Shown: piece by piece, positions 18,151-64,000 of the stretch
Numbering within the stretch: position 1 is the first letter of the stretch
Layout: each line of letters begins with the position of its first letter
Source: Dipteris shenzhenensis
Lineage: Eukaryota
NCBI GenBank assembly: GCA_047967505.1
Contig: CM106538.1
Strand: one strand, 5' to 3'
Length of the DNA: 64,000 bases
The notes under the pieces: model-generated
Databases searched by the model: none
Told to the model about the DNA's origin: nothing
What the model saw: the letters and a program-made list of their open reading frames with translations, nothing else
Made by a program: the position numbers and the translations under genes

Positions 18151-18319
18151 TCTCATTGGAAGGCAAATCTATTTTCAAGACTACATCCTAAATTCAACCC
18201 ATTCAAGAGCTGAGCTCATCTCATCCTCATCAATGTAGTTAAAATTATAGAAGAGAAAGATTGATGAATTTTCTATTTTCAAGCCTTTAGCCTAAATTCA
18301 ACCCATTCAAGAGCTGAGC

Positions 18320-18724: not shown

Positions 18725-18737
18725 AAAAATGAGAGGA

Positions 18738-20660: not shown

Positions 20661-20906
20661 TAGTTTTGTATTCTCTGCAACAAGTCTGGTAGGGCTGAGT
20701 AGATCATATTAGAATTGCTAATACAATTTATTTTTTTAGAATTGCTAATACAATAATAATACAAATTGAATAAATATCATAAGTAAATAAACTAATGTAT
20801 TGTAACATTTGTATTGTAACATTTAACATAAGTTTTAAAAACACTATCATTAGTCAATACAAACAAGATAAAAATCTTCAAGGACTCATGTTTCTTTCTA
20901 CATGTT

Positions 20907-26789: not shown

Positions 26790-27010
26790 AATTCAAGTTT
26801 CCACAAGTTTTCCTTTTCGCACATGTTTGTCTTTTCACACTTTTCAAGTTTCCACACGTTTGTCTTTTCAAACACAAGGTTGTCTTTTATCACAATTTTC
26901 AAGTTTCCACATGTTTATCTTTTCAAACACAAGGATTCATAGTTTAAAAAAAGGTGAGAAATTTGAAATTCAAGTTTCCACACGTTTGTCTTTACAAACA
27001 CCAAGGTTTA
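26790..27010. repeat. Short repeated motif TTCAAGTTTCCACA(C/T)GTTT
   Basis: Four or more copies just upstream of the CT tract. Confidence 0.7.
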
Positions 27011-27229
27011 TAGTTTTGTTTGTTTAAGTTTCGACTAAATCACACACCAATCTCCTCTAATATGCCTCATTGATCGTAGCTCCCAAATTCTTCCATCAAA
27101 ACATCTCTCCTTTATCTCTCCTTGATCGTCGCCCACTCATTTCTCCTCCTCATCGGTAAGATTTTCTATCTCTGATCGTACTTTCTCTTGCACCCTCCCT
27201 CTCTAAATTTTCATCTCTTGTCCATCTCT

Positions 27230-27445
27230 TGTCAATCTCTCTCATCTCCTCTCTTCTTCTTCTCTCTCTCTCATGCTAGTACGCTTCTCTCTTCTTCTTA
27301 TCTCTCTCTCTCTCACTCTAGTATGCTTCTCTCTCTCTAGTCTCTCATCTCCCTCTCTTTTTCTCTTCTCTCTCACTCTCTTTCTTCTCCCCTCTGGTCT
27401 ACGTTTCCTCTCATCTTTATTTACTCTCTCCCCTCCTCTTCATTT

Positions 27446-27508
<63 letters not shown>

Positions 27509-29430
27509 CACTCTCTCCTCTCTTTTTCTCTCTCTCTCTCTCACTTGCGCACTGCGCGTCTCTTCTTCTCTCTCGCTCTCCTACTCTCTCCCACTCTCTC
27601 CCACTCTATCTTTCTCTACTTTCTCTCCCACTCCCCTCTCTCTCTTTCTCTCTCATGCTGCCATGGTAGCGCGTCCCTCTCTTTCCCTCCCACTCTCTCT
27701 CGCTCTCCTACTCTTTCTCTCCTCTCTCTCCCACTTCCTCTCTCTCCCACTCCCTCTCTCGCGGTGCCCATGCCCCTCTCTCTCCCTCCCACTCTCTCTC
27801 TCTCTCGCTCTCCTCTCTCTCCCACTCCTCCCACTCTCTCTCTCTCTCGCGCCCCTCTCTCCCTCCCTCTCTCTCCCTCCCCACTCTTTCCCTCCCCCCC
27901 CTTGCGCTGCGCCTCCCCCCCTCTCTCTCTCCCCACTCTCTCTCTCCCCCCCCTCTCTCGTGTGCTACCGTGGTAGTGCGCCCCTCTCTCCCTCCCCCTC
28001 TCTCTCTCCCCCCTCCCGCTGTGCCTCCCCCCCTCTCTCTCTCTCTCCCCACTCTCTCTCTCCCCCCCTCTCTCTCTCACGCACTGCTGTGAGAGAGAGA
28101 GGGGGGAGAGAGAGAGGGGGGGAGGCCGCTGCCGCGAGACAGAGGGGGGGGAGAGAGAGAGTGAGGGGCGCGCTGTCATGGCAGCGCACGAGAGAGAGAG
28201 GGGGGGAGAGAGAGAGGGGGGGGAGGCCGTTGCCACGAGAGAGAGGTGAGAGAGAGTGAGGGGTGCACTGCCCCCCCCCTCCCCTCTCTCTCCCCCCCTC
28301 TCTCTCTCTCGTGCTACTGTGGCAGCGTGCCCCACTCTCTCTCTCCCCCCTCTCTCTCGTGACAGTGGCCTCCCCCCTCTCTCTCTCTCCCCACACTCTC
28401 TCTCCCCCCCTCTCTCTCTCTCACGCTGCCGCGGTAGTGTGCCCTTCACTCTCTCTCTCCCCCCTCTCTCTCGCGGTAGCGGCCTCCCCCCCTCTCTCTC
28501 TCCCCACTCTCTCTCTCCCCCCTCTCTCTCTCACATGCTGCCGCGGTAGCGGCAGCGTGCCCCTCTCTCCCTCTCCCTCTCTCTCCCCCCCTCGTGCTGC
28601 GCCTCCCCCCCTCTCTCTCTCGTGCGTTGCCGCCGTAGCGTGCCCCTCTCTCCCCCCCTCTCTCCCTTCCCACTCTCTCTCTCCCCCCTCGTGCTATGCC
28701 TCCCCCCCCCTCTCTCTCTCCCCACTCTCTCTCTCCCTCCCCTCTCTCTCTCGCGTGTTGCCATGGCAGCGCACCCCACTCTCTCCCTCCCTCTCTCTCC
28801 CCCCCTCTCTCTCTCTCTCCATCCCGTTGGGCCTCCCCCCCTCTCTCTCTCTCCCCCTCTCTCTCTCGCGGTCTCTCTCTCTCCCTCTCGGCACTCCTTT
28901 CTCTCTCTCTCTCTCCCTTCTTTTCTCTCTCTCTCTCTCTCTCTCTCTCCCTCTCGGTACTCCTTTCTCTCTCTCTCCCCCTCCCTCTCTCGCGCTCTCT
29001 CTCCTTTCCCTCTCTCCCTTTCTCTCTCTCACCTCTCTCTCCCTCTCATCTCTCCCATCTCCCGCAGCCCTCTATCACTCTCTCTCCCTCTATCTCTCTC
29101 ACATCTCTCTCCTCTCGTGTGGTCTCTCTCTCTCTCTCTGTCTCACGAATCTCTCCCTCCCTCCCTCTCTCTCTCCTCTCACGGCCCCCCTCTCTCTCTC
29201 TCCTCTCGCGCGGCCCTCCCCTCTCTCTCTCTCTTTTACCTCTCACCCTCTCTATCTCTAAACGTCTCTCCTCTCTCTTTCTCTCTCTCTCTAAAAGTCT
29301 CTCCTCTCTCTCCCTCTCTCTTTCTCCCTCTCTCTCTCTTTTGTTGCCGAGGCAGCAAGACTCTCTCTCTTATAATCTCTCTCTAAAAGTCTTTCCTTCA
29401 CATTTCTCTCTCTCTAAGTTCTCTCTCTAT
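27230..29430. repeat. CT/GA-rich micro/minisatellite with an internal inverted segment
   Basis: Near-pure pyrimidine plus strand with short GC-rich spacers; 28090-28260 is the same unit in reverse orientation. Confidence 0.95.
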
Positions 29431-29669
29431 AATAAAATTTCAAAGAATACAAATTAAAAAAAAAGTACTTGGAAAAAAGTTGAGATCTATGCTTGTGCTT
29501 GCTTTTGCTCTTCCTCCTCTTTTTGCTTCTCCTCTTGCTCTTCCTTGTTGAAATGAGAGAAACAATGAGAGAAGGAGAGTATATATAAGAAAAACCAGGG
29601 TTTTAAGTGCTTCTCTCTCATTGGTCCTTCTATATCATTATCTCCTCTCCCATTGGCCTCTCCATTAGA

Positions 29670-30575
29670 TTATCTTCTCTCCCTCTCCCACCCACTCCCA
29701 TCCTCCCACCCCATTCCCACTCCCACCCCCATCCTCCCACCCCACCTCCCCCATTCCCACTCCCTCTCCCACTCCCACACCCATGCCCATTCTTCCACCT
29801 TCCCCATTCCCACTCCCTCTGCCACTCCCATCCTCCCACCCCACCCCTCCCACTCCCACTCCCATTCTCCCACCCTCACCCCACCCCCATCTCCCCCATT
29901 CCCACTCCCTCTCCCACTCCCACTCCCATTCTCCCACGCACTCCCATCCTCCCACTTCCACCTCTCACTCCCACTCCCATCCTCCCACCCCCACCCCTCC
30001 CCCCCCCATTCCCACTCCCACTCCTATTCTCCCACCCCTTTCCTCCCACCTCACCCCTCCCACTCCCATCCTCCCACTCCCTCTCCCACTCCCACGCCCA
30101 ATTTACCACCCCCACCTCCCCCATTCCCACTCCCTCTCCCATCCTCCCACCCAACCCCTCCCACTTCCACCCCCACCTCCCCCATTCCCACTCCCTCTCC
30201 CACTCCCATCCTCCCACCCCACCCCTCCCACTCCCACCCCCACCTCCCCCATTCCTACTCCCTCTCCCACTCCTATCCTCCCACTCCCCACCCCTCCCAA
30301 TCCCACTCCCATCCTCCCACCCTCACCCCACCCCTACCTCCACCATTCCCACTCCCTCTCCCACTCCCACTCCCACTCCCATTCTCCCACCCCGACCCCC
30401 ACCTCCCCCATTCCCACTCCCTCTCCCACTCCCACTCCCACTCCCATCCTCCCACCCCCACCCCCACCCCCACCGCCCCCATTCCCACTCCCTCTCCCAC
30501 TCTCCCTTTCTCCCACTCTCCCTTTCTCCCACTACCACCCTCCCAACTCCCACTCCCATTCCCACATTCCTATTA
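29670..30575. repeat. (CCCACT/CCCATT)-type C-rich minisatellite
   Basis: About 900 bp with almost no G on the plus strand; the minus strand reads as GGGAGT-like repeats. Confidence 0.95.
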
Positions 30576-30647
30576 TCAATTCCACTACTACTTATGAATT
30601 CTAATTAAAACTATTACTTAAATAAATGATATTACTGAAAACACTCA

Positions 30648-31575
30648 TAGGATTTAAGGTTTAGGATTTGGTGGTTTGGGTTTAGGGTTTGGGGTTTGAT
30701 GAGCTAGGGTTTAGGGTTTGTGAGTTAGGAATTAGGCTTTGTGAGTTAGGGTTAGGGTTTAGGGTTTGTGAGTTAGGGTTTAGGGTTTGGTGGTTTGGAT
30801 TTAGGGTTTGAGGGGTAGGGTTTAGGGTTTAGGGTTTAAGGTTTGGGAGTTAGGGTTTAGGGTTCAGGGTTTGAGGGTTAGGGTTTAAGGGTTAGGGTTT
30901 AGGGTTTGGTTGTTTGGGTTTAGGGTTTAGGGGGTAGGGTTTAGGGTTTAGGGTTTGGGGGTTAGGGTTTAGGATTTAGGGTTTAGGGTTTAGGGTTTGA
31001 GGGGTTAGGGTCTAGGGTTTAGGGTTTGGGGGTTAGGGTTTAGGGTTTAGGGTTTGGGAGTTAGGGTTTAGGGTTTGGGTGTTAGGGTTCAGGGTTTAGG
31101 GTTTGGGAGTTAGGGTTTAGGGTTTGGGAGTTAAGATTTAGGGTTTTTATTGGTTAGGGTTGAGGGTTTAAAGAGTCAAGATTAACATTTATTGTTTAGG
31201 GATTAGGGATTATGAGTTAGGGTTTAGGGATTAGAGTTTACGAGTTTAGGTTTAGGTATTAGGGTTTAGGGTTTAAGGGTTAGGGTTTAGGAATTAGAGT
31301 TTTAGGATTAGGATTTTGGGATTAGGGATTAGGGGTTAGGGTTTACAGATTAGGATTTAGGGGTTTAGGATTTAGATTTAGGAATTAGGGTTAAGGATTT
31401 AGGGCTTAGGGTTTAAGGGTTTAGGAATTAGGGATTAGTGTATAGAATTTAGGGTTTAGAAATTACGGGTTAGGGTTTAGGGTTTAGGAATTAGGGTTTA
31501 TGGTTTCAAGGGTCAAATTAGGGTTTAGGGTTTGGGGGTTAGGGTTTAGGGTTTAGGGTTTAGGGTTTAGGGTTT
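30648..31575 (+). repeat. Interstitial telomeric array (TTTAGGG)n, degenerate
   Basis: About 930 bp of TTTAGGG and variants, with near-perfect units at the right end. Confidence 0.95.
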
Positions 31576-31667
31576 GATTAAATTTTTAAACAAGATCTAG
31601 ATTTTTAAATCATTAATAAAGTAGATTATTGAGAAGAGACTAATGTTCTTTATAATGGTTGTTACAG

Positions 31668-34600
31668 CTTGTTTGCAAAGGAAACTCACAAAGGAGATGG
31701 CTACAAAATTTATTCTGGGGATGGACGTGATTCTATGTTGCAAAAGAGAAGTAGTTGCATTTGCTACAATCCATGAAAGTGATCCAAATTCTATTTATCA
31801 CTTTAGAAGACTTGGCAAAGATAAGGTGGCGGTTATCGTATCAAGGATTCTTAGTGCACATGTTGAGCTAAAGCATAAGTGTGGGGATATGGACATCCTT
31901 GGAGATGTTATGCCCTATAATACTTCCAACAAAGCATTTATTGCATGGGACAGAGATGAGGCTTATCCAACACATGTCATCAGGAATACAAAGTGCATAT
32001 CTTTGGATTTTAGAGTGGGAGATATTTTACAAATGTTATCATTTGCAAATAACAATGTAGCAGAAGGTCAAGTCTTAGGATTTGAACAAGTGGAACACTG
32101 GACATTTGTGCAGACGAGAATTCAAAAAGTTACTGATGATGGTATGGATGATAACTCAATGTCATTGGATGGTCCCTACTATGAGGTAGGTAAGGATTTG
32201 AGATGGAGCATGCAATTTTTAAAGATTGGAAAGACTCGGCATGTGGTTTTTAATGATAAACATAACTACAACATCAAAGAATTGAAAGAATATGCCAATG
32301 TACCAAGCTCTATTCCTTCAGAGATGGATGATTCCAATGCACTCAACTATAGCACTGACGTCTTATCAGAAGTCGATGAGTTCATTGGTACCGAGAAAGA
32401 AAAATATTTCACAAGTGATGCCTTATCCGGGGTGGGTGGATGAGTTCATGCACATTGAGAACTTGGGCAAAGATGTCAAAAGTGATATATTTTCAAGCAT
32501 GGATGGCTTCATGGATACTAATAAAGTTCTTGGAGTCAAACCAAGTAACTATGGAAATCATGCACGATAGTATAATGAGTGATGTTCTCTCTGGAGTAGA
32601 GGAGTTTCAAGACTATGGAGTTATGAAATCCATAGAAAGTGCATCAATGAGTGACGTTCTCTCAGGAATAGATGAGTTTGAAGATCATTCTGGACACTCT
32701 ATCACCACTGACTATGGAGTTATGAAATCCATAGAAAGTGCATCAATGAGTGATGTTCTCTCAGAAATAGATGAGTTTGAAGATCATTCAGGACACTCTA
32801 ATGCCATTGTGACAAGTGGTTCTACGATTGTATCAAAAGTAGGGATGAGATCAACAAAGGACTATTCAGTATTTGACTTTGATTGTGAAATAGTTAATGT
32901 TACAAATGGTTTGACGAATGTATCAAAAGCAAGGATGACATCAACAAAGGAATATTTAGTATTTGACTATCAGAGTGATAAGATCAAGGATGCAACATCT
33001 CATGAAAACAATGTGACAAATAAATCTTACAAGGAGAACTACACAAATCCAAATAAGAATGTACAGAAGGTCCCAAAACGGACATACAAATGCATGAAAA
33101 GACAACGAGTCTAGGCAGATCCAGAAAAGCAACCAAAGAGAATAAGAGTAATGAATGAAGATGTTATGCTAAAAGCAATGCGATCTACATGCTGTAAGCA
33201 TACATGTATGCGATCCATTAACTTACATGACATCAAGGGTTGTAGAGAACATGTCTGGCAAAGGAAAGGAAGTAGAAGAAATGAATACCTACTCATGAGA
33301 TTGTCTTGCTTTCTTGTAAATGATAAGAGAAGGCGAAGTTCAGGACAGCAGATAAGGCCTTTTATAAATGGAAAAAGTATTTGCAATAATACATATCGCA
33401 TTATTACACGATTATCACATGGCACATATTGGAATTTGGCTAATAAAGCAAATTATGGAGTTAAATTTAACATTCATGGAAACATAGGAAGGCCCAAAAC
33501 AAGAGCCTCAACGGTTGTGGCAATAGCAATTTTGAAAGATTACATTTATGAAAATGCTTTACCGCAACCCCACCTATCAGAAATTCATCTTCTGATAGGT
33601 TTGACCAAAAAAGAAGTATTTAACTCTATTGGAGAAACACAGAGGCAAAGAGGGCATGCACCGGCATCTTTTCATACTTTGTATACTCTTTGGAAAAAAA
33701 GCTTTGGACATGTTAAAATCCCAAAGAGGCAAAAAATGTCAAAGTGCAACGACTGTGATGATCTAAAGTGAGCACTTGAGAGTGCAACATCTCTAGAACA
33801 AAAAGAAGCTTACAAAAAAAAGAGAGAATTTCATTATGGACTTGTTTGACATTCTAGAATAAAATATGCATTTTGGAAGGAGCAAGCTATTTCTCACCCA
33901 AATGAGTACATGTGCATTATTGTAGATGGTATGGATCAAAATACAACAACATTACCTCGATTCGTTAACACTCCACCTAAGCTACAAGGCAAATACTTTT
34001 TAAAGACACATCTATGTGGAGTGTTAGTGCACAGATTTAAGTTTTTTGCAGACATATGGATTGATTCCTTGCATCTACATGATAGCAATCAAGTGTAACA
34101 TCCGTTATGAAGGTAATTCACAATGTACATGCAGAAAAAGGTCACCTACCAGCAACTTTGAGAGTACAAGCAGACAATTGCGGACGAGAGAATAAGAATG
34201 TACTCTTCTTTGCATTTTGCTCAATGCTAATCGCTCATAGAATCTTCAATGATATTGAAGTTGGGTTTTTGTTGGTTGGGCACACACATGAGGATATCGA
34301 TCAGGTATTTAGCACAGTTTCAGGAGAACTAAAACACAAGGACATGGAGACGATGGATGACTTGATAAAAAAATGTGGGAGGAAAGTTGGTGGCCATAAG
34401 GAAGGAACAATATGCTCAATGGTTGAGAGGATGTATGATTGGAAGAGCTTTATTCTACCTTTCATACAAAAAGGTGGTGATGCCCTGATAGGTCATAGCG
34501 CTCCACACTATTTTTGCTTTTTCTTAAAGGATGAAAAACCAGTGATGCAATGGCAACACTATTCTCTTGATACAAAATGGGAACCTGAAGAACCTTACTC

Positions 34601-35393
34601 TCTCTTAACTTCAATCCCGAGCAAAGAAATGCATCCAACATGGGCTCCTATAAAAGAATTCAGCGAGAAATCCAAAGGTGAAATAGAAGGCTTAAAAGCT
34701 TTTATTACATACAAAGAGGAAATGCTCTGGAGATTTCCTGATTGGAAGCCCTCTTGGAAGGAACACACTATTGTTGTAATTAGCAAGACCCACCAATTGA
34801 TAAAGGACCTTGCAAAAATACGAGAAGATGATATTAAGATAGAACGGCCTTTATTTTGGCCAAATGTTGGTAATGACTTGCGTCCAGCATGTGGTCTCTT
34901 TGAAAATGAGTTTGAATCGTTGCTCCCACGTCCATATTGTGGACCCAAGAAGGGAGAGTTTATGCCACAAATAGACATAGATGTCCATTGTTTTGTTGCA
35001 GTTCGACCATCGGATGATGAACATGAGAACGTGAAGTTTTGGGTTGCGAAAGTAGTTGACGTGAGCATGGATGACCAGGGGAGAGCTACAACATTTACAT
35101 CGGTATGGTATGAGCCAAGGGGTAGGAAGGAGAACCAAGATAACAGTACATTGTATAGTAGTTGTCTGAAAAAGGAATGGGTCCCAAACCATGATGCAAT
35201 TTCAAGACTTTCCACAGAGACAATCATAGTATCCTGGAAATCAAGGTCAAAGAAAACAAAGAAGCACATGGGGTATGATGTAGAAGACAAAATAAAATTA
35301 CCGCAACCAATTATTACGCACATTATAGAGTTCATAAAGATGCTCACCCAGGAGGAAGTAGAAGGAGATAGCGCAAATGAAGAATGCCCATGA
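31668..35393 (+). pseudogene. Sola-like DDD/E transposase pseudogene, copy 2 (~1,200 aa if repaired)
   Basis: ORFs 31643-35393 join via a few stops and frameshifts. Motifs CCKHTC, KCNDC, IVDGMDQ, QADNCGRENKN, GHTHEDIDQVFS, C-terminal FWVAKV...WYEP. Confidence 0.85.
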
Positions 35394-36142
35394 TAACACC
35401 ATTCAAATATCGAGCAAGAGTGAAGGTGGTGGTGGTAGTCAGATGAGAGTGAATGAAGATGGCACCCAAGCGACAAGTGATGATAGAAAGGACATTCTGA
35501 ACAAGCAAATGTTTGGATCGCTCATTTCTATGATCATGATAGAAAAGGACATTCAAACAAGCAAATGTTTGGATCGCCCATTTGTACTAAACTCATTGTA
35601 AAGGAAAAATTAAATTATTGAAAAGGCCACAAGAGATCCTTTGTACAAAGACTCATCCAGAGCAATATTTGTTGTAAAACTTATGACATGATAATGTAAA
35701 ATTGCAAGCATAGCCATTGCTATTTTTTGGAGTACAAAAGAGGCTTCCATCATGTTTCATGTCTATATAAACCTTTTAATTTCTTGAATATTCAAGAGTG
35801 TTATAGTTTTCTGCATTGAAAGTAAAAAGAGTCTTACAGGTCTCTTATGTATACAATTTTAAAATGTTGTGAATCCTCAATAGCATGGTTTTTCATGGAT
35901 TTAAACTAATAACTCAGATTTTTTATTTTAAGAATATGATTCTTATAAACAAGAAATACAAATTTAGGATTTAATAGTAGTTTTTGCATTATTTGTACAA
36001 CATTGTAGAGAGATATTTTGAAATGTATTATGTGAAAATGATAGTGCCAGAAAGTAAACTTTTGATTCTTGAATGACAATTTCATAAAGTAAACTTTTCA
36101 TTTGGGAAGGATTTTAAGGAATAGTCCAAAAGTAGACATATG

Positions 36143-36168
36143 AGTCCAAAATTAATAAAATAAGTGTT
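36143..36168 (-). repeat. Right terminal inverted repeat
   Basis: Followed by TSD GAAA; nearly the same end at 8421 and 63443. Confidence 0.9.
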
Positions 36169-36279
36169 GAAAGTAATTTTCAAGAGAGCATTACTCTAGG
36201 GGAAGTTGTGTAATTAAAGAAAGTATCATAGCGCACTTAGGCATTATGCTTTGGAAGTGTCTACATGTAAAAATCTAGG

Positions 36280-49545: not shown

Positions 49546-52500
49546 AATCGACTTACATGCAAAGTGGCACTCCCATCCCATAAGTGCTTAATCGGATTAC
49601 ATACCTTGGAGCGTGTTTTTTTATGGATGTGCATGACACTAGAGCAAAAATAGTATTTATTGCTCGATCGATCATGCAAAGGATATCCGATGGGCACAAA
49701 ACTTTTCGTACACCTCAACCTAGGTGGTATTGGAATGTTCTCAAAGAGGCACACCCATCCGATAAGTACTTGGTCAGATAACACACCTAAGGGCGTGTTT
49801 TTTTGCGGATGTGCATATCACTCGGGAAAAAATGGTGTATAATGCATGATCGACCATGGAAAGCATATCTGATGGTGACAATACTTTGCACCCACCTCAA
49901 CGTAGTTGAAATAGACTTGCGTGCAAAGTGGAGCCCTCATCCGGTAAGTACTTGTTGAAATAACACGCCTAGGACCGTGTTTTTTCATGGTTATGCATGA
50001 CAGTAAGGATAAAACGGTGTTTTATGCTTGATCGACAATGCAAAGCATATCCGATGGGCACAATACTTTGCACACACCTTCAACTAGGTGGAATCAACTT
50101 ACATGCAAAGTGGCATGCCCATCCCATAAGTGCTTGATTGGATAACATACCTAGCAGCGTGTTTTTTTACGGATGTGCATGACACTAGAGCAAAAATAGT
50201 ATTTAATGCTCGATCGACCATGCAAAGGATATCCGATGGGCACAACACTTTTCATACACCTCAACCTAGGTGGTATTGAAATGTTGTCAATGAGGCACTC
50301 CCATCCGATAAGTACTTGGTCAGAAAACACACCTAATGGCGTGTTTTTTTGTGGATGTCCATTTCACTAGGGAAAAAATGGTGTATAATGCTTGATGGAC
50401 CATGCAAAGCATATCCGATGGTGACAATACTTTGCATGCACCTCAATGTAGTTGAAACAGACTTGCGTGCAAAGTGGAGCCCCCATCCGATAAGTACTTA
50501 TTTGAATAGCACACCTACGTCCACGTTTTTTGACAGTTGTACATGACACTAAGGCCAAAAACGGTGTATAATGCGTGATCGACCATGCAAATCATATCCA
50601 ATGGTGAAAATACTTTGCACGCACCTTAATGTAGTTGAAACAGACTTGCGTGCAAAGTGGAGCCCCCATCCGATAAGTACTTGTTTGAATAACACACTTA
50701 GGACCGTGTTTTTTCATGGTTGTGCATGACACTAAGGGAAAAACGGTGTTTTAGGCTTGATCGACAATGCAAAGCATATCCGATGGCACAATACTTTGCA
50801 CACACCTTCAACTAGGTTGAATTCACTTACATGCAAAGTGGCACGCCCATCCCCTAAGTGCTTGATCGGATAACATACCTAGCATCGTGTTTTTTTACGG
50901 ATGTGTATGACACTAGAGCAAAAATAGTATTTAATGCTCGATCGACCATGCAAAGGATATCTGATGGGCAAAATACTTTTCGTACACCTCAACCTAGGTG
51001 GTATTAAAATGTTCTCAATGAGGCACACCCATTCGATAAGTATTTGGTAAAATAACACACCTAATCGCGTGTTTTTTTGCGGATGTGCATACCACTAGGG
51101 AAAAAACGGTGTATAATGCGTGATCGACCATGCAAATCATCTCCGATGGTGAGAGTACTTTGCACACACCTCAACGTAGTTGAAACGGACTTGCGTGAAA
51201 AGTGGAGCCCCCATCCGATAAGTACTTGTTTGAATAACACACCTAGGACCGTGTTTCTTCATGGTTGTGCATGACACTAAGGCAAAAACGGTGTTTTATG
51301 CTTGATAGACAATGCAAAGCATATCCGATGGGCACAATACTTTGCACACACCTTTAAATAGGTGGAATTGACTTACATGCAAAGTGGCACACCCATCCCA
51401 TAAGTGCTTGATCGGATAACATACCTAGCAGCGTGTTTTTTTACGGATGTGCATGACACTATAGCAAAAATAGTATTTAATGGTCGATCGACCATGCAAA
51501 GGATATCCGATGGGCACAATATTTTTTGTACACCTCAACCTAGGTAGAATTGAAATGTTCTCAAAGAGGCACACCCATCCGATAAGTACTTGGTCAGATA
51601 ACACACCTAAGGGCGTGTTTTTTTGCGGATGTGCATATCACTAGGGAAAAAATGGTGTATAATGCGTGATCGACCATGTAAAGCATATCCGATGGTGACA
51701 ATAATTTGCAAGTACCTCAACATAGTTAAAATGGACTTGCATACAAAGTGGAGCCCCCATCCGATAAGTACTAGTTTGAATAACAGACCTAGGACCGTGT
51801 TTTTTCATGATTGTGTATGACACTAAGGCAAGAACGGTGTTTTATGCTTGATCGACAATGCAAAGCATATCCGATGGGCACAATACTTTGCACACACCTT
51901 TAACTAGGTGGAATTGACTTACATGCAAAGTGGCACGCCCATCCCATAAGTGCTTGATCAGATAACATACCTAGCAGCGTGTTTTTTTACGGATGTGCAT
52001 GACACTAGAGCAAAAATAGTATTTAATGCTCGATCGACCATGCAAAGGATATTCGATGGGCACAACACTTTTCGTACATGTCAACCTAGGTGGTATTGAA
52101 ATGTTCTCAATGAGGCACACCCATCCGATAAGTACTTGGTCAGATAACACACCTAATGGGGTGTTTTTTTACGGATGTCCATATCACTAGGGAAAAAATG
52201 GTGTATAATGCGTGATGAACCATGCAAAGCATATCCGATGGTGACAATACTTTGCACGCACCTCAACATAGTTTAAAAGGATTTGCGTGCAAAGTAGAGC
52301 CCCCGTCCGCCGATAAGTACTTATTTGAATAACACACCTACAGCCGTGTTTTTATATGGTTGTGCATGACACTAAGGCAAAAACGGTGTTTTATGCTTGA
52401 TCGACAATGCAAAGCATATCTGATGGGCACAATACTTTTCACACACCTTCAACTAGGTGGAATTGACTTACATGCAAAGTGGCACGCCCATCGCATAAGT

Positions 52501-55500
52501 GCTCGATCGGATAACACACCTAGCAGCGTGTTTTTTTACAGATGTGCATGACACTAGAGCAAAAATAGTATTTAATGCTCGATCACCTAGGTTAAGGTGT
52601 ACGAAAAGTATTGTGCCCATCGGATATGCTTTGCATGGTCGATCGAGCATTAAATACTATTTTTGCTCTAGTGTCATGCACATCCATAAAAAAACACGCT
52701 GCTAGGTGTGTTATCTGATCAAGCACTTATGCGATGGGGGTGCCACTTTGCATGTAAGTCAATTCCTTCTAGTTGAAGGTGTGTGCAAAGTATTGTGCCC
52801 ATCGGATATGCTTTTCATTTTCGATCAAGCATAAAACACCGTTTTTGCCTTAATGTCATGCACAACCATATAAAAACACGGCCGTAGGTGTGTTATTCAA
52901 ATAAGTACTTATCCGATGGGGGCTCTACTTTGCACACACATCTTTTTCAACTACGTTGAGGTGCGTGCAAAGTATTGTCACCATCGGATATGCCTTGCAT
53001 GGTCGATCACGCATTATACACCATTTTTTCCCTAGTGATATGGACATCTGCAAAAAAACACGCCATTAGGTGTGTTATCTGACCAAGTACTTATCGGATG
53101 GGTGTGCCTCTTTGAGAACATTTCAATACCACCTAGGTTGATGTGTACGAAAAGTGTTGTGCCCATCGGATATCCTTTGCATGGTCGATCGAGCATTAAA
53201 TACTATTTTTGCTCTAGTGTCATGCACATCCGTAAAAAAACACGCTGCTAGGTATGTTATCCGATCAAGCACTTATGGGATGGGTGTGCCACTTTGCATG
53301 TAAGTCAATTCCACCTAGTTAAAGGTGTGTGCAAAGTATTGTGCCCATCGGATCTGCTTTGCATTGTTGATCAAGCATAAAACACCGTTTTTGCCTTAGT
53401 GTCATGCACAACCATGAAAAAACACGGTCCTAGGTGTGTTATTCAAACAAGTACTTATCGGCTCGGGGCTCCACTTTGCACGCATGTCTGTTTTAACCAC
53501 GTTGAGGTCTGTGCAAAGTATTGTCACCATCGGATATGATTTGCATGGTCGATCACGCATTATACACCGTTTTTTCCCTAGTGGTATGCACATCCGCAAA
53601 AAAAAACGCACCTTAACTAGTTGAAACGGACATGCGTGCAAAGTGGAGCCCCCATATGATAAGTACTTGTTTGAATAACACACCTAGGACCATGTTTTTT
53701 CATGGTTGTGCATGACACTAAGGAAAAAATGGTGTTTTATGCTTGATCGACAATGCAAAGCATATTCGATGGGCACAATACTTTGCACACACCTTTAACT
53801 AGGTGGAATTGACTTACATGCAAAGTGGCACGCCCATCCCATAAGTGCTTGATCGGATAACATACCTAGCAGCGTAATTTTATACGAATGTGCATGACAC
53901 TAGAGCAAAAATAGTATTTAATGCTCGATCGACCATGCAAAGGATATCCGATGGGCACAACACTTTTCCTACACGTCAACCTAGGTGGTATTGAAATGTT
54001 CTCAAAGAGGCACACCCATCCGATAAGTACTTGGTCAGATAACACACCTAATGGCGTGTTTTTTTGCGAATGTCCATATCACTAGGGAAAAAATGGTATA
54101 TAATGCGTGATCGACCATGCAAAGCATATCCGATGGTGACAATACTTTCCACACACCTCAACATAGTTGAAATGGACTTGCGTGCAAAGTGGAGCCCCCA
54201 TCCGATAAGTACTTATTTGAATAACACAGCTACGGCCGTGTTTTTATATGGTTGTGCATGACACAAAGGCAAAAACAGTGTTTTATGCTTGATCGACAAT
54301 GCAAAGCATATCTGATGGGCACAATACTTTGCACACACCTAAACGTAGTTGAAACAGACTTGCGTGCAAAGTGGAGCCCCCATCCGATATGTACTTATTT
54401 GAATAACACACCTAGGGCCGTGTTTTTATATGGTTGTGCATGATACAAAGGCAAAAACGGTGTTTTATGCTTGATCGACAATGCAAAGCATATCCGATGG
54501 GCACAACACTTTTCCTACACATCAACCTAGGTGGTATTGAAATGTTCTCAAAGAGGCACACCCATCCGATAAGTACTTGGTCAGATAACACACCTAATGG
54601 CGTGTTTTTTTGCGGATGTCCATATCACTAGGGAAAAAATGGTGTATAATGCGTGATCGACCATGCAAAGCATATCCGATGGTGACAATACTTTGCACAC
54701 ACCTCAACGTAGTTGAAACGGACTTGCGTGCAAAGTGGAGCCCCCATCCGATATGTTTCTATTTGAATAACACAGCTACAGCCGTGTTTTTATATGGTTG
54801 TGCATGACACAAAGGCAAAAACGGTGTTTTATGCTTGATCGACAATGCAAAGCATATCCGATGGGCACAATACTTTGCACACACCTTCAACTAGGTGGAA
54901 TTGACTTACATGCAAAGTGGCATTCCCATCGCATAAGTACTTGATTGGATAACACACCTAGCAGCGTGTTTTTTTATGGATGTGCATGACACTAAGGCAA
55001 AAATGGTATTTAATGCTCGATGGACCATGCAAAGCATATCCGATGGGCAAAATACTTTTCCTACACCTTAACCTAGGTGGTATTGAAATGTTCTCAAAGA
55101 GCACACCCATCCAATAAGTACTTGGTCAGATAACATACCTAAGGGCATGTTTTTTTGCGGATGTGCATATCACTACGGGAAAAACGTTGTATAATGCGTA
55201 ATCGACCATGCAGAGCATATCCGATGGTGACAATACTAGTTGAAATGGACTTGCGTGCAAACTGGAGCCCCCATCTGATTAGTACTTGTTTGATTAACAC
55301 ACTTAGGACCGTGTTTTTTCATGGTTGTGCATGACACAAAGGCAAAAACGGTGTTTTATGCTTGATCAACAATGCAAAGCATATCCGATGGGCACAATAC
55401 TTTGCACACACGTTCAACTAGGTGGAATCGACTTCCATGCAAAGTGGCACGCCCATCCCATAAGTGCTTGATCGGATAACATACCTAGCAGCGTGTTTTT

Positions 55501-58500
55501 TTACAGATGTGCATGACACTAGAGCAAAAATAGTATTTAATGCTCGATCGACCATGCACATGTTTTTTTGCGGATGTGCATATCACTACGGGAAAAACGT
55601 TGTATAATGCGTAATTGACCATGCAGAGCATATCCGATGGTGACAATACTTTGCACGCATCTCAAGCTAGTTGAAACGGACTTGCGTGCAAACTGGAGCC
55701 CCCATCCGATAAGTACTTGTTTGATTAACACACTTAGGACCGTGTTTTTTCATGGTTGTGCATGACACTAAGGCAAAAACGGTGTTTTATGCTTGATCGA
55801 CAATGCAAAGCATATCCGATGGGCACAATACTTTGCACACACCTTCAACTAGGTGGAATTGAATTACATGCAAAGTGGCACACCCATCCCATAAGTGCTT
55901 GATCGGATAACATACCTAGCAGCATGTTTTTTTTACGGATGTGCATGACACTAGAGTAAAAATAGTATTTAATGCTCGATCGACCATGCAAAGGATATCT
56001 GATTGGCAAAATACTTTTCCTACACCACAACCTAGGTGGTATTGAAATGTTCTCAAAGAGGCACACCCATCTGATAAGTACTTGGTCAGATAACACACCT
56101 AAGGGCGTGTTTTTTTGCGGATGTGCATACCACTAGGGAAAAAACGGTGTATAATGCGTGATCGACCATGCAAATCATCTCCGATGGTGAGAGTACTTTG
56201 CACACACCTCAACGTAGTTGAAACGGACTTGCGTGAAAAGTGGAGCCCCCATCCGATAAGTACTTGTTTGAATAACACACCTAGGACCGTGTTTCTTCAT
56301 GGTTGTGCATGACACTAAGGCAAAAACGGTGTTTTATGCTTGATCGACAATGCAAAGCATATCCAATGGGCACAATACTTTGCACACACCTTTAAATAGG
56401 TGGAATTGACTTACATGCAAAGTGGCACGCCCATCCCATAAGTGCTTGATCGGATAACATACCTAGCAGCGTGTTTTTTTACGGATGTGCATGACACTAT
56501 AGCAAAAATAGTATTTAATGCTCGATCGACCATGCAAAGGATATCCGATGGGCACAACACTTTCGTACACCTCAACCTAGGTGGTATTGAAATGTTCTCA
56601 ATGAGGCACACCCATCTGATAAGTACTTGGTCAGATAACACACCTAATGGCGTGTTTTTTTGCGGATGTCCATATCACTAGGGAAAAAATGGTGTATAAT
56701 GCGTGATCGACCATGCAAAGCATATCCGATGGTGACAATACTTTTCATGCACCTCAACGTAGTTGAAACGGACTTGCGTGCAAAGTGGAGCCCCCATCTG
56801 ATAAGTACTTATTTGAATAACACACCTACGGCCGTGTTTTTATATGGTTGTGCATGACACAAAGGCAAAAACAGTGTTTTATGCTTGATCGACTATGCAA
56901 AGCATATCCGATGGGCACAATACTTTGTACACACCTTCAACTAGGTGGATTTGACTTACATGCAAGGTGGCATTCCCATCGCATAAGTACTTGATCGGAT
57001 AACACACCTAGCAGCGTGTTTTTTTACGGATGTGTATGACACTAAGGTAAAAATGGTATTTAATGCTCGATCGACCATGCAAAGCATATCCGATGCGCAC
57101 AATACTTTTCCTACAGCTTAACCTAGGTGGTATTGAAATGTTCTCAAAGAGGCACACCCATCCGATAAGTACTTGGTCAGATAACATACCTAAGGGCATG
57201 TTTTTTTGTCGATGTGCATATCACTATGGGAAAAACGTTGTATAATGCGTAATCGACCGTGCAGAGCATATCCGATGGTGACAATACTTTGCACGCATCT
57301 CAACCTAGTTGAAACGGACTTGCGTGCAAACTGGAGCCCCCATCCGATAAGTACTTGTTTGATTAACACACTTAGGACCGTGTTTCTTCATGGTTGTGCA
57401 TGAAACTAAGGCAAAAATGGTATTTTATGCTTGATCGACAATGCAAAGCATATCCGATGGGCACAATACTTTGCACATAGCTTCAACTAGGTGGAATTGC
57501 CTTACATGCAAAGTGGCACTCCCATCCCATAAGTTCTTGATCGGACAACATACCTAGCAGCGTGTTTTTTTACGGATGTGCATGACACTAGAGCAAAAAT
57601 AGTATTTATTGCTCGATCGATCATGCAAAGGATATCCGATGGGCACAACACTTTTTGTATGCCTCAACCTAGGTGGTATTGAAATGTTCTCAAAGAGGCA
57701 CACCCATCCGATAAGTACTTGGTCAGATAACACACCTAAGGGCGTGTTTTTTTGTGGATATGCACATCACTAGAGAAAAAATGGTTTATAAGCCGTGATC
57801 GACCATGCAAAGCATATCCGATGGTGACAATACTTTGCACACACCTCAAACTATGTAGTTGAAAGGGACTTGCGTGCAAAGTGGAGCCCCCATCCGATAA
57901 GTACTTGTTTGAATAACACACCTAGGACTGTGTTTTTTCATGTTTGTGCATGACACTAAGGCAAAAACAGTGTTTTATGCTTGATCCAAAATGCAAAGCA
58001 TATCCGATGGGCACAATACTTTACACACACCTTCAACCAGGTGGAATTGACTTACATGCAAAGTGGCATTCCCATCGCATAAGTACTTGATCGGATAACA
58101 CACCTAGTAGCATGTTTTTTTTACGGATGTGCATGACACGAGCAAAAATAGTATTTAATGCTCGATTGACCATGCAAAGCATATCCGATGGGAACAATAC
58201 TTTTCCTACGCCTTAACCTAGGTGGTATTGAAATTTTGTCAAAGAGGCACACCCATCCGCCGATAAGTAGTACTTGGTTAGATAATACCTAAGGGCGTGT
58301 TTTTTTGCAGATGTGCATATCACTATGGGAAGAACGTTGTATAATGCGTAATCGACCATGGAGAGCATATTCGATGGTGACAATACTTTGCACACATCTC
58401 AACCTAGTTGAAACGGACTTGCGTGAAAAGTGGAGCCCCCATCCAATAAGTACTTGTTTGATTAACACACTTAGGACCGTGTTTTTTCATGGTTGTGCAT

Positions 58501-58776
58501 GACACTAAGGCAAAAACGGTGTTTTATGCTTGATCGACAATGCAAAGCATATCCGATGGGCACAATACTTTGCACACACCTTCAACTAGGTGGAATTGAC
58601 TTACATGCAAAGTGGCACACCCATCCCATAAGTGCTTGATTGGATACCATACCTAGCAGGCTCGTGTTTTTTTATGGATGTACATGACACTAGAGCAAAA
58701 ATAGTATTTAATGCTCGATCGACCATGCAAAGGATAACTTGGTATGTCCATCTGATGAGTACTTGATCGGATAACT
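49546..58776 (+). repeat. 182-bp satellite array (~50 monomers) with 546-bp higher-order repeat and an internal inversion
   Basis: Equivalent spurious ORFs recur 545-546 bp apart (51077/51623, 54064/54610, 56115/56660/57206); about 52585-53610 is reverse-complemented. Confidence 0.95.
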
Positions 58777-58871
58777 TCTGCCACCAATAAATTAAGTACT
58801 AACTCAATATTATTATAAATGAGTAGATTATTAAAAAGAGACTAATATTTATGTAATTGTTGCTACTGCAG

Positions 58872-61800
58872 CTTGCTTGCGAAGGTCTCTCACAAAGGAG
58901 ATGGCTATAGATTTTTTTCCAGGGATGGATGTGATTTTATGTAGCAAAAGAGTAGTTGCATTTGCTACAATCCATGATAGTGATCCCAATTCAGTTTGCC
59001 ACTTTCGAAGACTTGGCGAAGATAAGGTGGCAGTTACTGTATCAAAGATTCTTAGCGCACATGTTGAGCTAAAGTATAAATGTGGAGATATGGAAACACT
59101 TGGAGATGTTATGCCCTACAATACATCCAACAAATCATTTATAGCATGCAACAGACATTATCAAGAATACAAAGTGCACCACCTTGGATTTTACTATAGG
59201 GGACATTTTACAAATGAGATCATTTGCAAATAAGACTGTAGCAGAAGGTGAAGTATTGGGATTTGAACAAGTGGAGCAATGGTCATTTGCACAGATGAGG
59301 ATTCTAAAAGTCACTGATGATGGTATGGTTGATAACATAACATCATTTTGTGATCCCTACTATGAGGTAGGCAAGAATATGAGATGGAGCATGCAATTTT
59401 TAAACATGAGAAAGAGGCACGTGGTTTTCAATGATAAAGACAAGGTATACTACAATATCAAAGGACCTAAAAAGCGTGCCCATGTGCCAGGCTCTATCAC
59501 TTCAAATGTGGATGATTTCAATATACTCAATTATAGAAGTGACATCTTATCTGGAGTGGATGAGTTCATTGGTTCCGAGAAACAAAATGATTTTAGAAGC
59601 GAAGCCTTATCTGGGGTGGATGAATTCTTGCACAGTGAGAAGGGCAAAGGTTTCAATAGTGATGTCTTGTCAAGTGTGGATGAGTTCATGCATATTAACA
59701 AACCTGGTGTCAATCAAGCTTGTGGATTTGTGACAGCCATGCAAGATGTCCCAATGAGTGATGTTCTCTCAGGAGTGGAAGAGTTTCAAGGTTCTCAATA
59801 CTCTCGTAGAATATTGAATTCATTGAATGGTCCTAAGAGTATGTTAAAAATGAGGATGAGATCAACAGAGGATTATTCAATATTTAACTTTGATTGTGAT
59901 ATGGACAAGGATGCAACGACCAATCATGGATGCTTGGTTACAAACAAATGTGAGGAGAAGAAGTGCATAAATACAGATAACAACGTGCACGAGGAACGAA
60001 AACGGTCATACATATGCATGAAGAGAAAGTGAATCCAGGCAGATCCACAAAAGCAACCAAAGAGGAAGAGAGTAATGAAGGAGGAGAACATGTTAAATGC
60101 ATTGGGATATCTATGTTGCAAGCGAAGATGTATGCACTTCATTGATCCTGCAGACATCAGGGAATGTAGAGGACACGTGTGGCAAAGAAGAGAAAGCAAA
60201 AGAAATGAATACCTTCTCAAAAGTCTCTCTTGCTTTCTTCAGTATGGCAATAAAAGGCTAAGTTCAAGGCAAAAGGTAAAACCTCTCGTAAATGGAAAAA
60301 GGATTTGCAATAAGGCATATCACAATATTACTGGATTATCCCATAGTACATATTGGGATTTAGTCAGCAAGGCAAAGGGCGGCAACAAATTTAGCATTCA
60401 CGGTAATAGAGGAAGGTCCAAATCAAGAATCTCAACTGTCAGGGCAGTAGCAATTTTGCAAGACTTCATACATGAAAATGCTTTACCTCAACCCCATATA
60501 TCTACCAAACTCCCTAACGGTGATGCGATCACTGAAATGCACCTTCCAATGGGCTTGACAAAGCTCGAAGTATTTGACTCTATTGCAGAAAAGCAAAGGC
60601 AAAGAGGGGATGCCGTAGCTTCTTCTCATACTTTGTATACTCTTTGGAAGAAGAACTTTGGATATGTTAAAATACAAAGGAGGCAAAAAATGTCAAAGTG
60701 CAATGTCTGTGATGATTTAAAGCGAGCGATTGAGAGTGCAACATGTCCAAATCAAAGGGAATTATACAAAAAAAACCAAAAATCTCATCATGACCTTATT
60801 CGACATTCTAGACAAAAATATGCATTTTGGAAGGAGCAAGCTATTTCGCATCCCGATGACTACATGTGCCTTATTGTAGATGGCATGGATCAGAATACAA
60901 CAACATTGCCTCGTTTTGTTGCCACTCCACCTAAATTACAAGAAAGCACTTTCTAAAGACACATCTATGTGGAGTGTTAGTGCATGGAATTAAGTTCTTT
61001 GCAGATATATGGATTGATTCCTTGCATCTACATGATAGCAATCAAGTTGTAACATCTATTATGAAGGCAATTCGCAATGTACATGCAGAAAAAGGTCGCC
61101 TACCACCGACTTTGAGAATACAAGCTGATAATTGCTGGCGAGAAAATAAGAATGTACTCATGTTTGCATTCTGCTCCATGCTAGTTGCTCATCGAATCTT
61201 CAATGAGGTCGAATGTGGATTTTTGTATGTTGGGCATACACATGAGGATATCGATCCGGTTTTTAGCACAGTCTCAAGGGAGCTTAAATGCAAGGATGTG
61301 GAGACAATAGATGACTTGGTAAGAAGATGTGGTAGGCAAGTTGGTGGTCATAAGGAAAGTATAGTATGTGAGAGGCTCGAAAGAATGTATGATTGGAAGA
61401 GCTTCATTCTACCTTTCATACAAACAGGTGGTGATGCATTGACAGGTCATACCAATCCACACTACTTTCATTTTTTTTAAAAAGATGAAAAACCCATAAT
61501 GCAATGGCAACAGTATTCTCATGATACAAAATGGGAACCTGAAGAACCTTACAGTCTCTTAACTTCAATTCCCAGCAAGGAAAGGTATCCAACATGGGCT
61601 CCTATACAAGAATTCAATGAGAGGTCTAACTGTGAAATAGAAGGATTAAAAGCATTTATTACATACAAAGAGGAAATGCTCCGGAGATATCCTGATTCGA
61701 AGCCTACTTGGAGAGAACACACTACCACTGTAATTAACAAGACACGAAATTTAATAAAGGACCTTGAGAGAATGCGAGGCTCAAAGGATTTCAAGGAAGA

Positions 61801-62347
61801 ATGCAATATGTTTTGGCCAAATGTTCATAACGATTTGCGCCCAGCTCCAGTCTTTGAAAATGAATTTGTATCATTACTCCCACGTCCATATTGTGGACCG
61901 AAGAAGAAAGAGTTTATGCCACAAGTAGATATAGAGGTCGATTGTTTTGTTGTGGTTCGGCCATCGGATGATGAATATGAGAATGCGAAGTTTTGGGTTG
62001 CAAAAGTAGTTGATGTGCAAAGAGATGACCAAGGGAGAGCTACAACATTTATAGCGGTATGGTATGAGCCAAAGGGCAGGAAGGAGAATATGGATAACAA
62101 CACATTGTATACTAATTGTATAATGAAGGAGTGGGTCCCAAATGATGAAGCGGTCTCTCAAGTTTTGACGGAGACAATCATAGTGTCTTGGCATTCAAGG
62201 GCAAAGAAATCAAAGAAGTGCATGGGATATGAGGTAGAAGGAAAAATAAAAATACCACAGCAAACTATTTTGCATATACACGAATTTTTAAGGATGCTCG
62301 CCATGGAGGAAGTAGAAGGAGATAGCGCAAATGAAGAATATCCATGA
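58872..62347 (+). pseudogene. Sola-like DDD/E transposase pseudogene, copy 3 (best preserved)
   Basis: About four lesions (near 59150, TGA at 60030, near 60945, near 61478); same motifs as copies 1 and 2. Confidence 0.88.
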
Positions 62348-62459
62348 TTAAAGCTTTGTATTGAAGTCCATTGAAGGATTTTATTTGGGTACTAGGCAAG
62401 AAGCCAATCCAAGACAATTATAATCAGAGTCATCACCTCCTATGTCAAATGAGAGTCAA

Positions 62460-62875
62460 AATATGCACTGGATGTCACCCAAGGGTCAAGGCTTGCCAAG
62501 ACAATAGGGAGTTAATGCAGATGGCACTTGGCAAGGGACTATCACATTGAGCAATAAGACAATGGGGAGTCAATGCACCCAAGGGGCAAGGCTTGGCAAG
62601 ATAACTTGTGGGAGTTAATGCAGATGGCACCTGTATTTTGCACTGGATGTCACCCAAGGGTCAAGGCTTGGCAAGACAATAGGGAGTTAATGTAGATGGC
62701 ACCTGGCAAGGGACTATCGCATTGAGCAATAAGACAATGGGGAGTCAATGCACCCAAGGGGCAAGGCTTGGCAAGACAAGTGGGAGTCAAATTATGCACA
62801 TGGCACCTGGCAAGGGACTGTCGTGACATTGAGCAATAAGACAATGGGGAGTCAAATTATGCAGATGGCATGAAT
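62460..62875 (+). repeat. Subterminal tandem repeat of copy 3
   Basis: Expanded version of 7610-7835. Confidence 0.85.
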
Positions 62876-64000
62876 TGAGGCTCTTTAAGAGCAACAATTT
62901 AAATTGTAACATATGTTCAATATAAAGACTCTAGCTGAGAGCAACGTCTCTCAATGTAATCATATAATAATAGCTATAATTGCTATCATACCTCTTTGGT
63001 TCAATACAAAACTTGGGTCTTATGGCATCATGTCTTTTTTCTATTTATTAAAAGTTTTAAAAATTTTGTGCATATTGCGAGTGACAATGTTATTTTCATG
63101 AAATATTTAAGTCTCCTTTCATGGATTTATAAATTTATCACGTCAAGGAAAAATATTAAAAATAATTAAATTAACAAATAACTTAGATATAGCTAGAATT
63201 TCTAATATAGGATTATTTCAAATTCTTGCATGTTGGTGCAAAAGTATAGATTGAAAAAACAATATTTTTATGTGAATATGATAGTGCCACAAAGTGAACT
63301 TTTGATATGGGAAGAATATTTTCAGAAAGTAAAATTTTGATTTGGGAAGGATATTTTCACAAAGTAAAGTTTTCATTTGGGAAGGATTTTTGGGCTTCGT
63401 CCAAAAACAACACAAAAGTTCCAAAATTAATGAAATAGGTGTTAAAAGAAGGACTACAATTTCCTTGGTTTATGACCAAAATAGTGCTAAAATAACTCCA
63501 ACGATCCCACCATTGTGGTTGCATGGAGATACATCTAGAAAAATACAATTAAAATTTCAAAAAATGCAATTGATGATATGGCCCTTGAGGGGTCCCCTCA
63601 ACATGCCATTTTATCTCGTCACATCCTAGATATTGTATAATGCACATAGGTATGGCCCTCGCCCCTAAAGGGGACCCCTCAAGGGCCATATCATCAATTG
63701 CATTTTGCTTGGTTGCACAATGGAATACATTTTCCTTGGTACACAAATATATAAATCCAAGAAACAGCGTGGTAACTTTCATAGATCTCCTCCCATAATA
63801 CATAAAAATAGGTAACGGAGCTATAACTCCAAGAACTAGCGTAGTGATCTCTCTAAGACAACCTTGAATTCTGGGCAATGACAGGTGGTCATGCCAGAGA
63901 CTATGCTGAGATGATGCTCAGAATGATAGATTGTGTCCCATTATTACGCAAAAAACTAGCATGGTGGTCTCTCTAAGGCAACTTATGATTTGCATGGGCT

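Follow-up and report, generated by a model that had tools for sequence, protein, structure and literature searches.

The three transposon copies in a 64,000-nucleotide stretch of contig CM106538.1 of Dipteris shenzhenensis (GenBank assembly GCA_047967505.1; the whole stretch is called the window below) raise the question of whether a DNA transposon can carry large tandem arrays along with it. All three belong to one DDE transposon of the DUF7869 family, lie on the plus strand and end at 8421, 36168 and 63443, and each is located directly downstream of a tandem array, which is a 182-bp satellite in two cases and an array of telomere-like repeats in the third. The original prediction, made from the letters alone, had seen in this arrangement an interchangeable repeat position ahead of the transposase and a vehicle for the birth and dispersal of satellites. 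It appears that a classical DDE transposon with terminal inverted repeats (TIRs), belonging to an undescribed family, was copied terminus-precisely while fused to a nucleosome-length satellite. The account that we favour, at about even confidence, is that the family has a variable 5' region, that copy 2 is complete with its telomere-like arrays enclosed, that the ancestor of copies 1 and 3 acquired its satellite in a single junction event, and that the joined unit was later duplicated with a precise 3' terminus.

The window is DNA of a plant type, with a G+C content of 40% and AAACCCT/TTTAGGG arrays. Its three copies, with their open reading frames (ORFs), and the subterminal repeats found by Tandem Repeats Finder (TRF) are as follows:

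4128..8421, plus strand: copy 1 (spacer and broken ORFs, followed by the non-coding part and a 3' TIR with GTGTT as its last bases), from BLAST to copy 3
31621..36168, plus strand: conserved module of copy 2 (lineage-specific N-terminal ORF part, DUF7869 part, 3' non-coding part and 3' TIR), from Pfam and ORFs
58822..63443, plus strand: conserved module of copy 3, ending in the 3' TIR (...AATAGGTGTT), from Pfam, ORFs and the 3' end
63288..63391, plus strand: three units of 35-bp 3' subterminal repeats in copy 3, from TRF

Copy 1 (4176-8421) matches copy 3 at 93.3-97.2% identity in four BLAST blocks (query 58737-64000 against the window), and copy 2 (31620-35394) matches copy 3 at 74.9-82.7% in BLAST within the window. 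Copy 1 has the 35-bp repeats too, at 8266-8369, and copy 2 has two units of them near 36050-36112; a pattern search placed every one of their seven sites in the window at the three 3' ends. Copy 1 has at least six frame breaks, and as copy-specific frame breaks occur in all three copies, no copy in the window is intact. Near the 5' end, 84 bp of copy 3 (about 58830-58905) are missing from copy 1 in the alignment, so that the AGAGACTAAT...CAG/CTTG part is present only in copies 2 and 3.

The ends of the transposon can be read from its relatives. Metagenome contigs scanned with the transposase alignment gave at least 597 pattern matches, of which 499 were confirmed by tblastn, and the best 80 of these were kept as loci L001-L080 (protein identity 25-52%). 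The inverted ends of the family read 5'-AACAC...GTGTT-3'. The 3' end ...AATTAATnAAATAnGTGTT is kept in eight related loci and in all three window copies, while the flanks differ right after GTGTT, and thus 8421, 36168 and 63443 are true 3' termini. The 3' ends of the related loci are strikingly conserved (...AATTAATTAAATATGTGTT), and a 19-nt form of this end was found in 26 of the 80 loci with up to three mismatches. These family-wide termini are new and make DUF7869 elements annotatable.

The right flanks of the three window copies differ from exactly the terminal base onwards. For copies 1 and 3 this had been predicted, and local alignment found no similarity between their right flanks (p=0.997). 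It is the strongest argument that these two copies are not a plain segmental duplication, a possibility that the original prediction had raised against itself: on the right, their homology ends at 8421 and 63443 (with 557 bp of copy 3 flank available), and on the left, only a junction piece of about 37 bp is specifically shared. A broader version of the idea is that copies 1 and 3 arose by transposase-independent local duplication (unequal crossing-over, ectopic recombination between the arrays, or segmental duplication), that their right flanks were altered later, and that the arrays are a by-product of heterochromatin. The two copies lie on the same strand 54.6 kb apart, each following the same satellite; satellite makes up about 20% of the window, with further simple repeats besides; the arrays show active rearrangement (an inverted block at 52587-53608, identities of up to 99% and a 37-bp duplication found only in copy 3); and the flank of copy 3 has a repetitive palindrome and loose-ended contigs. 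Despite these points, we regard local duplication as rather unlikely, as the homology stops at the exact terminus set by the eight relatives, for which chance would be about 1 in several thousand, and no trace of the right flank of copy 1 was found after copy 3 or elsewhere in the window. The palindrome itself is a perfect 38-bp inverted repeat at 63561-63706, resembling a miniature inverted-repeat transposable element; contigs of two sequencing runs match only its arm and then continue with other sequence, and it is therefore repetitive in the genome.

The 5' side of the modules was resolved to single bases:

4101-4131, plus strand: junction 31-mer CATCTGATGAGTACTTGATCGGATAACTTCT of copy 1, exact match
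58749-58779, plus strand: junction 31-mer CATCTGATGAGTACTTGATCGGATAACTTCT of copy 3, exact match
58732..58777, plus strand: tandem duplication of the junction-proximal piece with a 37-bp step, only in copy 3, with the junction 9-mer GGATAACTT twice
31576..31620, plus strand: spacer of copy 2, 45 bp, AT-rich
58776..58821, plus strand: spacer of copy 3, 46 bp, AT-rich, ending in a TATAAAT-like motif

The claim of one common array-end junction in copies 1 and 3 stood up well. The 31-mer occurs exactly at 4101 and 58749 and nowhere else in the window, and its first 27 bases have 12 matches with up to three mismatches, two of them exact (both junctions) and the other ten all with three mismatches, against a shuffle expectation of 0. 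As only the two junctions match exactly, the junction is of single origin, inherited by copies 1 and 3 from one event, and was not hit twice in monomers that merely resemble each other. The 9-mer GGATAACTT was located at 4121, 58732 and 58769, plus one unrelated site on the minus strand. It was also noted that ACACCTA (equal to TIR bases 2-8) is present in the satellite just after the junction phase GGATAAC, possibly by coincidence.

The distances that had suggested a slot were likewise reproduced. In copy 2, 31575 is the last position of the TAGGGTT array and 31621 the first of AGTAGATTATT, leaving the 45-bp spacer; in copy 3 the satellite stops at 58775 and AGTAGATTATT starts at 58822, leaving 46 bp. 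The spacer of copy 3 is 87% identical to that of copy 1; homology of the copy 2 spacer to those of copies 1 and 3 was not detectable (p=0.93 and 0.84), unlike in the 3' non-coding DNA, which is still homologous between the two lineages (z about 7). By eye, the likeness of the spacers is limited to the last 10 nt or so, which are TATA-like (ATTATAAAT/ATTAATAAA). What coincides is the start of inter-lineage homology, just upstream of the first ATG, and a defined slot is not borne out.

These measurements also bear on the proposal that the array is true internal cargo just upstream of the ORF, with subfamilies carrying either telomere-like or 182-bp repeats and transposition spreading the satellites, which we consider doubtful overall. 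The array-to-module distances (45 versus 46 bp) and the single junction of copies 1 and 3, which nevertheless have different 3' flanks from the true terminus, speak for it, and the lack of detectable homology between the copy 2 and copy 1/3 spacers speaks against it. Copy 2 also speaks for cargo, with arrays inside a TIR pair and a candidate target-site duplication; its features are listed here:

17634..36168, plus strand: probable complete copy 2 element, 18.5 kb, from the TIR pair and the GAAA/GAAA flanks
17630..17633, plus strand: GAAA, candidate 4-bp target-site duplication (TSD), left of copy 2
17634..17662, plus strand: the only 5' TIR of the window (AACACTTATTTCATTAATTTTGGACT...), from pattern search, with a BLAST-short match to the 3' end of copy 2 (E=4e-7)
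25844..26252, plus strand: degenerate (AAACCCT)n array (TRF period 7, 58.4 copies, 76% matches)
27236..30565, plus strand: CT-rich low-complexity tracts, namely (TC)n, C-rich and (CTCCCA)n, from TRF
30648..31575, plus strand: degenerate (TTTAGGG)n array directly upstream of the copy 2 module (TRF period 7, 131 copies, 71% matches)
36169..36172, plus strand: GAAA, candidate 4-bp TSD, right of copy 2

A search for the inverted terminus found four sites in the window, with 0 expected by chance, and the single site on the plus strand is that at 17634. This 5' TIR is closest to the 3' end of copy 2 (28 of 29 nt), a second motif, TACTTTTGGACTA, is common to this 5' end and copy 2 only, and the TIR is followed at 17898-18133 by four CAAAAGTTAC motifs that mirror the 3' subterminal GTAAACTTTTG repeats. 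Given the TIR pair and GAAA on both sides, copy 2 is probably a complete 18.5-kb element that holds both telomere-like arrays in a 5' region of about 14 kb, and to this extent, provided that 17634 and 36168 are rightly paired, an array would lie inside the element; this does not extend to the 182-bp satellite of copy 3. A direct repeat around copy 2 longer than GAAA was not significant (p=0.46). Among the relatives, TSD candidates are ATAT/ATAT in L011 and ATAT/TTAT in L023, which is the same locus type as L011. A 4-bp TSD is a feature of the Sola superfamily.

The two telomere-like arrays are opposed in orientation, with inverted BLAST matches between 30648-31575 and 25844-26252, and probably arose when a single array was split by one inversion that broke within it. 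Between them, the DNA at 27236-30565 is strand-asymmetric and C/T-rich over more than 3 kb, with C-rich units of 112-133 bp. Another TIR-like site at 25820, just before the AAACCCT array, was rejected, since its score of 23 is within the noise (background 24-25). The 18.5-kb element also contains a gene-like chain of six ORFs on the minus strand (21171-24993, 92-218 amino acids), for which no Pfam family was found; in a homologue search none of the 882 candidates received a score, and no counterpart turned up by tblastn among the 80 related loci.

For the 182-bp satellite the picture is different, and its two arrays have the following extents:

1..4127, plus strand: satellite array upstream of copy 1 (TRF period 182, 18.7 copies, 74% matches)
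49546..58775, plus strand: satellite array upstream of copy 3, 9.2 kb, from TRF

The first array runs past the left end of the window, and its last 0.7 kb or so is irregular. No 5' TIR was found by pattern search between 36169 and 58775, over about 22 kb upstream of copy 3, and the left edge of the second array, at 49546, abuts unrelated purine-rich DNA. The satellite as enclosed cargo is therefore not supported for copy 3. Hence, of the predicted movement of the satellite with the element, the co-copying of the junction (a unique 31-mer together with unrelated 3' flanks from GTGTT onwards) was upheld and the enclosure was not.

A 546-bp higher-order register common to both satellite arrays would favour cargo. 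On the other side, the two arrays are at best 88-94% identical to each other, the matching offsets being scattered, and no diagonal is seen at the level of the element (93-97%); the 546-bp unit showed no similarity to the element or to the 80 related loci. Identities within the array of copy 3 are 91-99%, and fast array turnover could have erased an in-register signal. The traits relevant to centromeres that were seen are limited to a monomer length of 182 bp and the higher-order repeat of 546 bp. Within the array of copy 3, a 1-kb satellite block is inverted at 52587-53608, with both inversion breakpoints inside the array. A separate 184-bp tandem repeat at 42075-42872 (4.3 copies, 90% matches) aligns weakly (57%, E=7e-4) with the 182-bp satellite, of which it may be a distant relative.

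The layout of the window copies recurs in the relatives, which have a conserved ORF-3' module next to a 5' region that is unstable. L057 and L023, both complete, are 4.3-4.6 kb long, and L011 reaches 11.3 kb through a 7.7-kb insertion in its 5' half relative to L023; the homology of L031 to L023 begins where this insertion sits. A recognisable 5' TIR is present in 3 of the 12 loci with more than 5.5 kb upstream, or in 4 of 12 if the six-edit candidate of L034 is counted. The supposed family habit of keeping a large array upstream found no support. In a census of 39 non-redundant loci, of which 15 had enough upstream and 19 enough downstream flank, 5 of the former had an array of at least 200 bp upstream and 8 of the latter had one downstream, none of them reaching 0.9 kb. 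There is thus no family-wide upstream array compartment, and the absence of an upstream excess speaks against cargo.

Telomere-like repeats do occur upstream of the transposase in two distant relatives, which is in keeping with cargo. L026 has degenerate AAACCCT-like tracts (2435-3536 and 6060-6489), one of which ends exactly at the start of 5' subterminal repeats of about 50 bp, the second being 3 kb further up, and L006 has a telomere-like tract at 4160-4540. L011 (669/11941) and L023 (7830/12471) are surrounded by imperfect direct repeats of about 21-24 bp (p=0.0007 and 0.009), which is the picture that insertion within a small tandem repeat would give; as the two have common flanks, they represent the same insertion in duplicated or allelic DNA. 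The abutting array of L026 and the direct repeats of L011 and L023, together with the lack of a recognisable 5' TIR in most relatives, could also be explained if the arrays were flanks, that is, if the transposon preferred to insert at or beside tandem arrays or if its broken 5' ends were capped by addition of telomere repeats. This we hold to be very improbable for the window. No array sequence is found 3' of any of its copies, which are thus not simple insertions into arrays; copies 1 and 3 have one monomer variant and so are not independent hits; and the proximal array of copy 2 lies within the 17634/36168 TIR pair. A wider conjecture, also improbable but somewhat less so, is that DUF7869 transposons of green plants are recurrently tied to 5' arrays, above all of the telomere type (copy 2, L026 and L006), which would serve as a landing or capping site or as a functional 5' part (e.g. 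with protein-binding telomere motifs near the promoter), and that one lineage swapped in the 182-bp satellite and moved the junction, making it a carrier of array seeds.

The abundance of the element was estimated from three public sequencing runs that contain part of the stretch (of six listed), compared as contigs only; no RNA run was among the runs listed with part of the stretch. The summed contig depth in run X1 was 796 for the last satellite monomer, 41 for the junction bin and 24-154 for the element, and the corresponding values in run X2 were 334, 20 and 4-28, with 20-28 for the 3' flank. The satellite is thus 10-40 times deeper than the element, whose depth is about equal to that of the flank, and contigs of the copy 1/3 type are about 2-3 times as deep as those of the copy 2 type. 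This contrast points to a family of few copies, probably a very low-copy one with three or four, and to a satellite that exists mostly apart from the element, which argues against cargo. Along with the absence of sequence in common, it lends no support to the notion that the element is a vehicle for satellite birth and dispersal, which stays unproven. Among the contigs listed, one each in X1 and X2 bridges the junction with copy-1-like letters and without the 84-bp deletion of copy 1, and these represent either a further copy or a polymorphism; other forms of the junction may occur besides those listed.

In the account that we favour, the three units would be decayed copies of a low-copy cut-and-paste DNA transposon, probably with a 4-bp target duplication. 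The conserved module may be read as starting with an AT-rich leader, which is short and has a TATA-like motif; the ORFs come next, then roughly 1 kb of non-coding DNA that includes the 35-bp repeats, and finally the 3' end. The region between the 5' end and the ORF would be fast-changing, with foreign and repetitive DNA accumulating there. In copy 2 it would have become a 14-kb variable region with an interstitial telomere-like array, split into opposed halves by an inversion that we infer from the orientation of the arrays. The ancestor of copies 1 and 3 would have had all the DNA ahead of its leader replaced by, or joined to, the 182-bp satellite in one event. The joined unit, at least 37 bp of satellite plus the module, would later have been copied to a second site, with the 3' cut exactly at the transposon terminus. 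How this duplication proceeded we infer from the anatomy: it may have been driven by the transposase, using a 5' end located within the satellite or past it, or it may have been a one-ended transposition with the other side resolved by recombination in satellite DNA. The arrays may stop about 45 bp short of the module because a loss of the core promoter would not have been tolerated.

Several observations weigh against this account. The right flank of copy 3 is visible for 557 bp only, where a later insertion exactly at the end of the copy may have occurred, and the 5' side of copy 1 lies beyond the window. The TSD in the window is one pair of 4-mers, for which chance is roughly 1 in 100-200, and L057 has no TSD (flanks AAAT/CATA). 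The spacers are near-equal (45 and 46 bp) in two lineages, a coincidence not expected of independent rearrangements and consistent with a position that is truly fixed, and at a length of 45 bp spacer homology could simply escape detection. The low copy number is derived from summed contig depths, a poor measure. Finally, the 3' flanks of copies 1 and 2 have 13 nt in common (p=0.0075, ten comparisons), which may reflect target-site preference or a few more terminal bases. The motif right after the terminus reads G(T)AAAGTAAT(A/T)TTC, at 8422-8437 in copy 1 and 36169-36181 in copy 2. The flank of L006 resembles that of copy 2 as well (p=0.026).

The transposase was recognised by Pfam DUF7869 (PF25273) with 141.9 bits in copy 2 and 175.7 bits in copy 3, the gathering cut-off being 26 bits. 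In alignments of 9 and 11 sequences, the D of DGMDQ is nearly invariant and the D of QxDNC and the E of GHTHEDID are invariant, with a short D-to-E spacing of about 40 residues. A predicted model of the relative P0001 (predicted local distance difference test score 61.5) gave weak Foldseek matches (E=5e-4 to 5e-2) to RNase-H-like proteins, namely PIWI, IstA, Mu, Mos1 and retroviral integrases, and a profile search of PDB sequences returned only a chance match (E=0.28). The conserved residues form a DDE triad, and the weak fold matches of the model suggest that it lies on an RNase-H-like fold. The N-terminal part of about 470-500 amino acids (31625-33111 in copy 2) is lineage-specific, that of copy 2 having no counterpart in the 80 related loci. 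It is separated from the conserved transposase part by an in-frame TGA at 33112-33114 in copy 2 and 60030-60032 in copy 3, a position that is identical in the two copies although they are only about 80% alike. This could mean two ORFs, an intron or read-through. The name DUF7869 was not met in a literature search, and the accessible parts of PMC5751038, a bioRxiv survey of DDE elements, PMC12973397 and PMC4455052 contain no sequence criteria for naming a superfamily.

Satellites have been connected with mobile elements before, mostly with retrotransposons, Helitrons and foldback elements. In alternative or composite ('macrotransposon') transposition of Ac/Ds-type elements, one terminus acts together with a remote or cryptic partner and the DNA between them is moved. 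A process of this type would yield a transposase-precise 3' end with foreign DNA, here the satellite, on the 5' side; for copy 3, however, the window yielded neither a partner terminus nor a target duplication that matches. The arrays of copy 2 resemble interstitial telomeric repeats of plants in being degenerate (71-76% matches), 0.4 and 0.9 kb long and far from a visible chromosome end, and differ from them in lying within a TIR pair and in opposed orientation around a 4.4-kb CT-rich segment. A literature search for transposons with telomeric repeats returned nothing relevant.

The Tat/Ogre LTR (long terminal repeat) retrotransposons have a hypervariable tandem-repeat region in their 3' untranslated region that was a source of Lathyrus satellites (PMC7004042). 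The likeness consists in a non-coding compartment with lineage-variable tandem repeats beside a conserved coding module, proposed there as a satellite cradle. Tat/Ogre elements are RNA-copied, with short arrays that arise internally and satellites similar to the element, whereas the window elements are DDE DNA transposons with arrays of 4-9 kb and a satellite unlike the element, and enclosure between two ends is seen only for the telomere-like arrays of copy 2. DNA transposons reported to carry or seed satellite-like repeats include Tetris, a foldback element of Drosophila virilis (PMC4079207), and Helentrons of the Pacific oyster, with arrays resembling satellite DNA (PMC7492417). Common to these cases and ours is the physical linkage of a DNA transposon to arrays and the idea of an element dispersing array seeds. 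Tetris and Helentrons are, according to the abstracts, abundant, often non-autonomous and present in many dispersed copies (PMC4079207, PMC7492417); the window has three decayed copies within 60 kb, apparently with few more, and a single junction event. If co-mobilisation is true genome-wide, copies 1 and 3 would represent a concrete and datable case of a satellite seed reaching a new locus. Otherwise, they would provide a worked example of an easily over-read pattern, in which a conserved ORF-3' module with a fast 5' region in repeat-dense chromatin produces look-alike slots.

Elsewhere in the window, Pfam searches of 17 other ORFs gave nothing above the cut-offs. Minus-strand ORFs at 36513-37918, immediately downstream of copy 2, have the look of a decayed Ty1/copia polyprotein, as judged by translation only, with no match in Pfam. 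In addition, a 1.17-kb tandem duplication with 94% identity is present at 10554-12881, between copy 1 and the 5' TIR.

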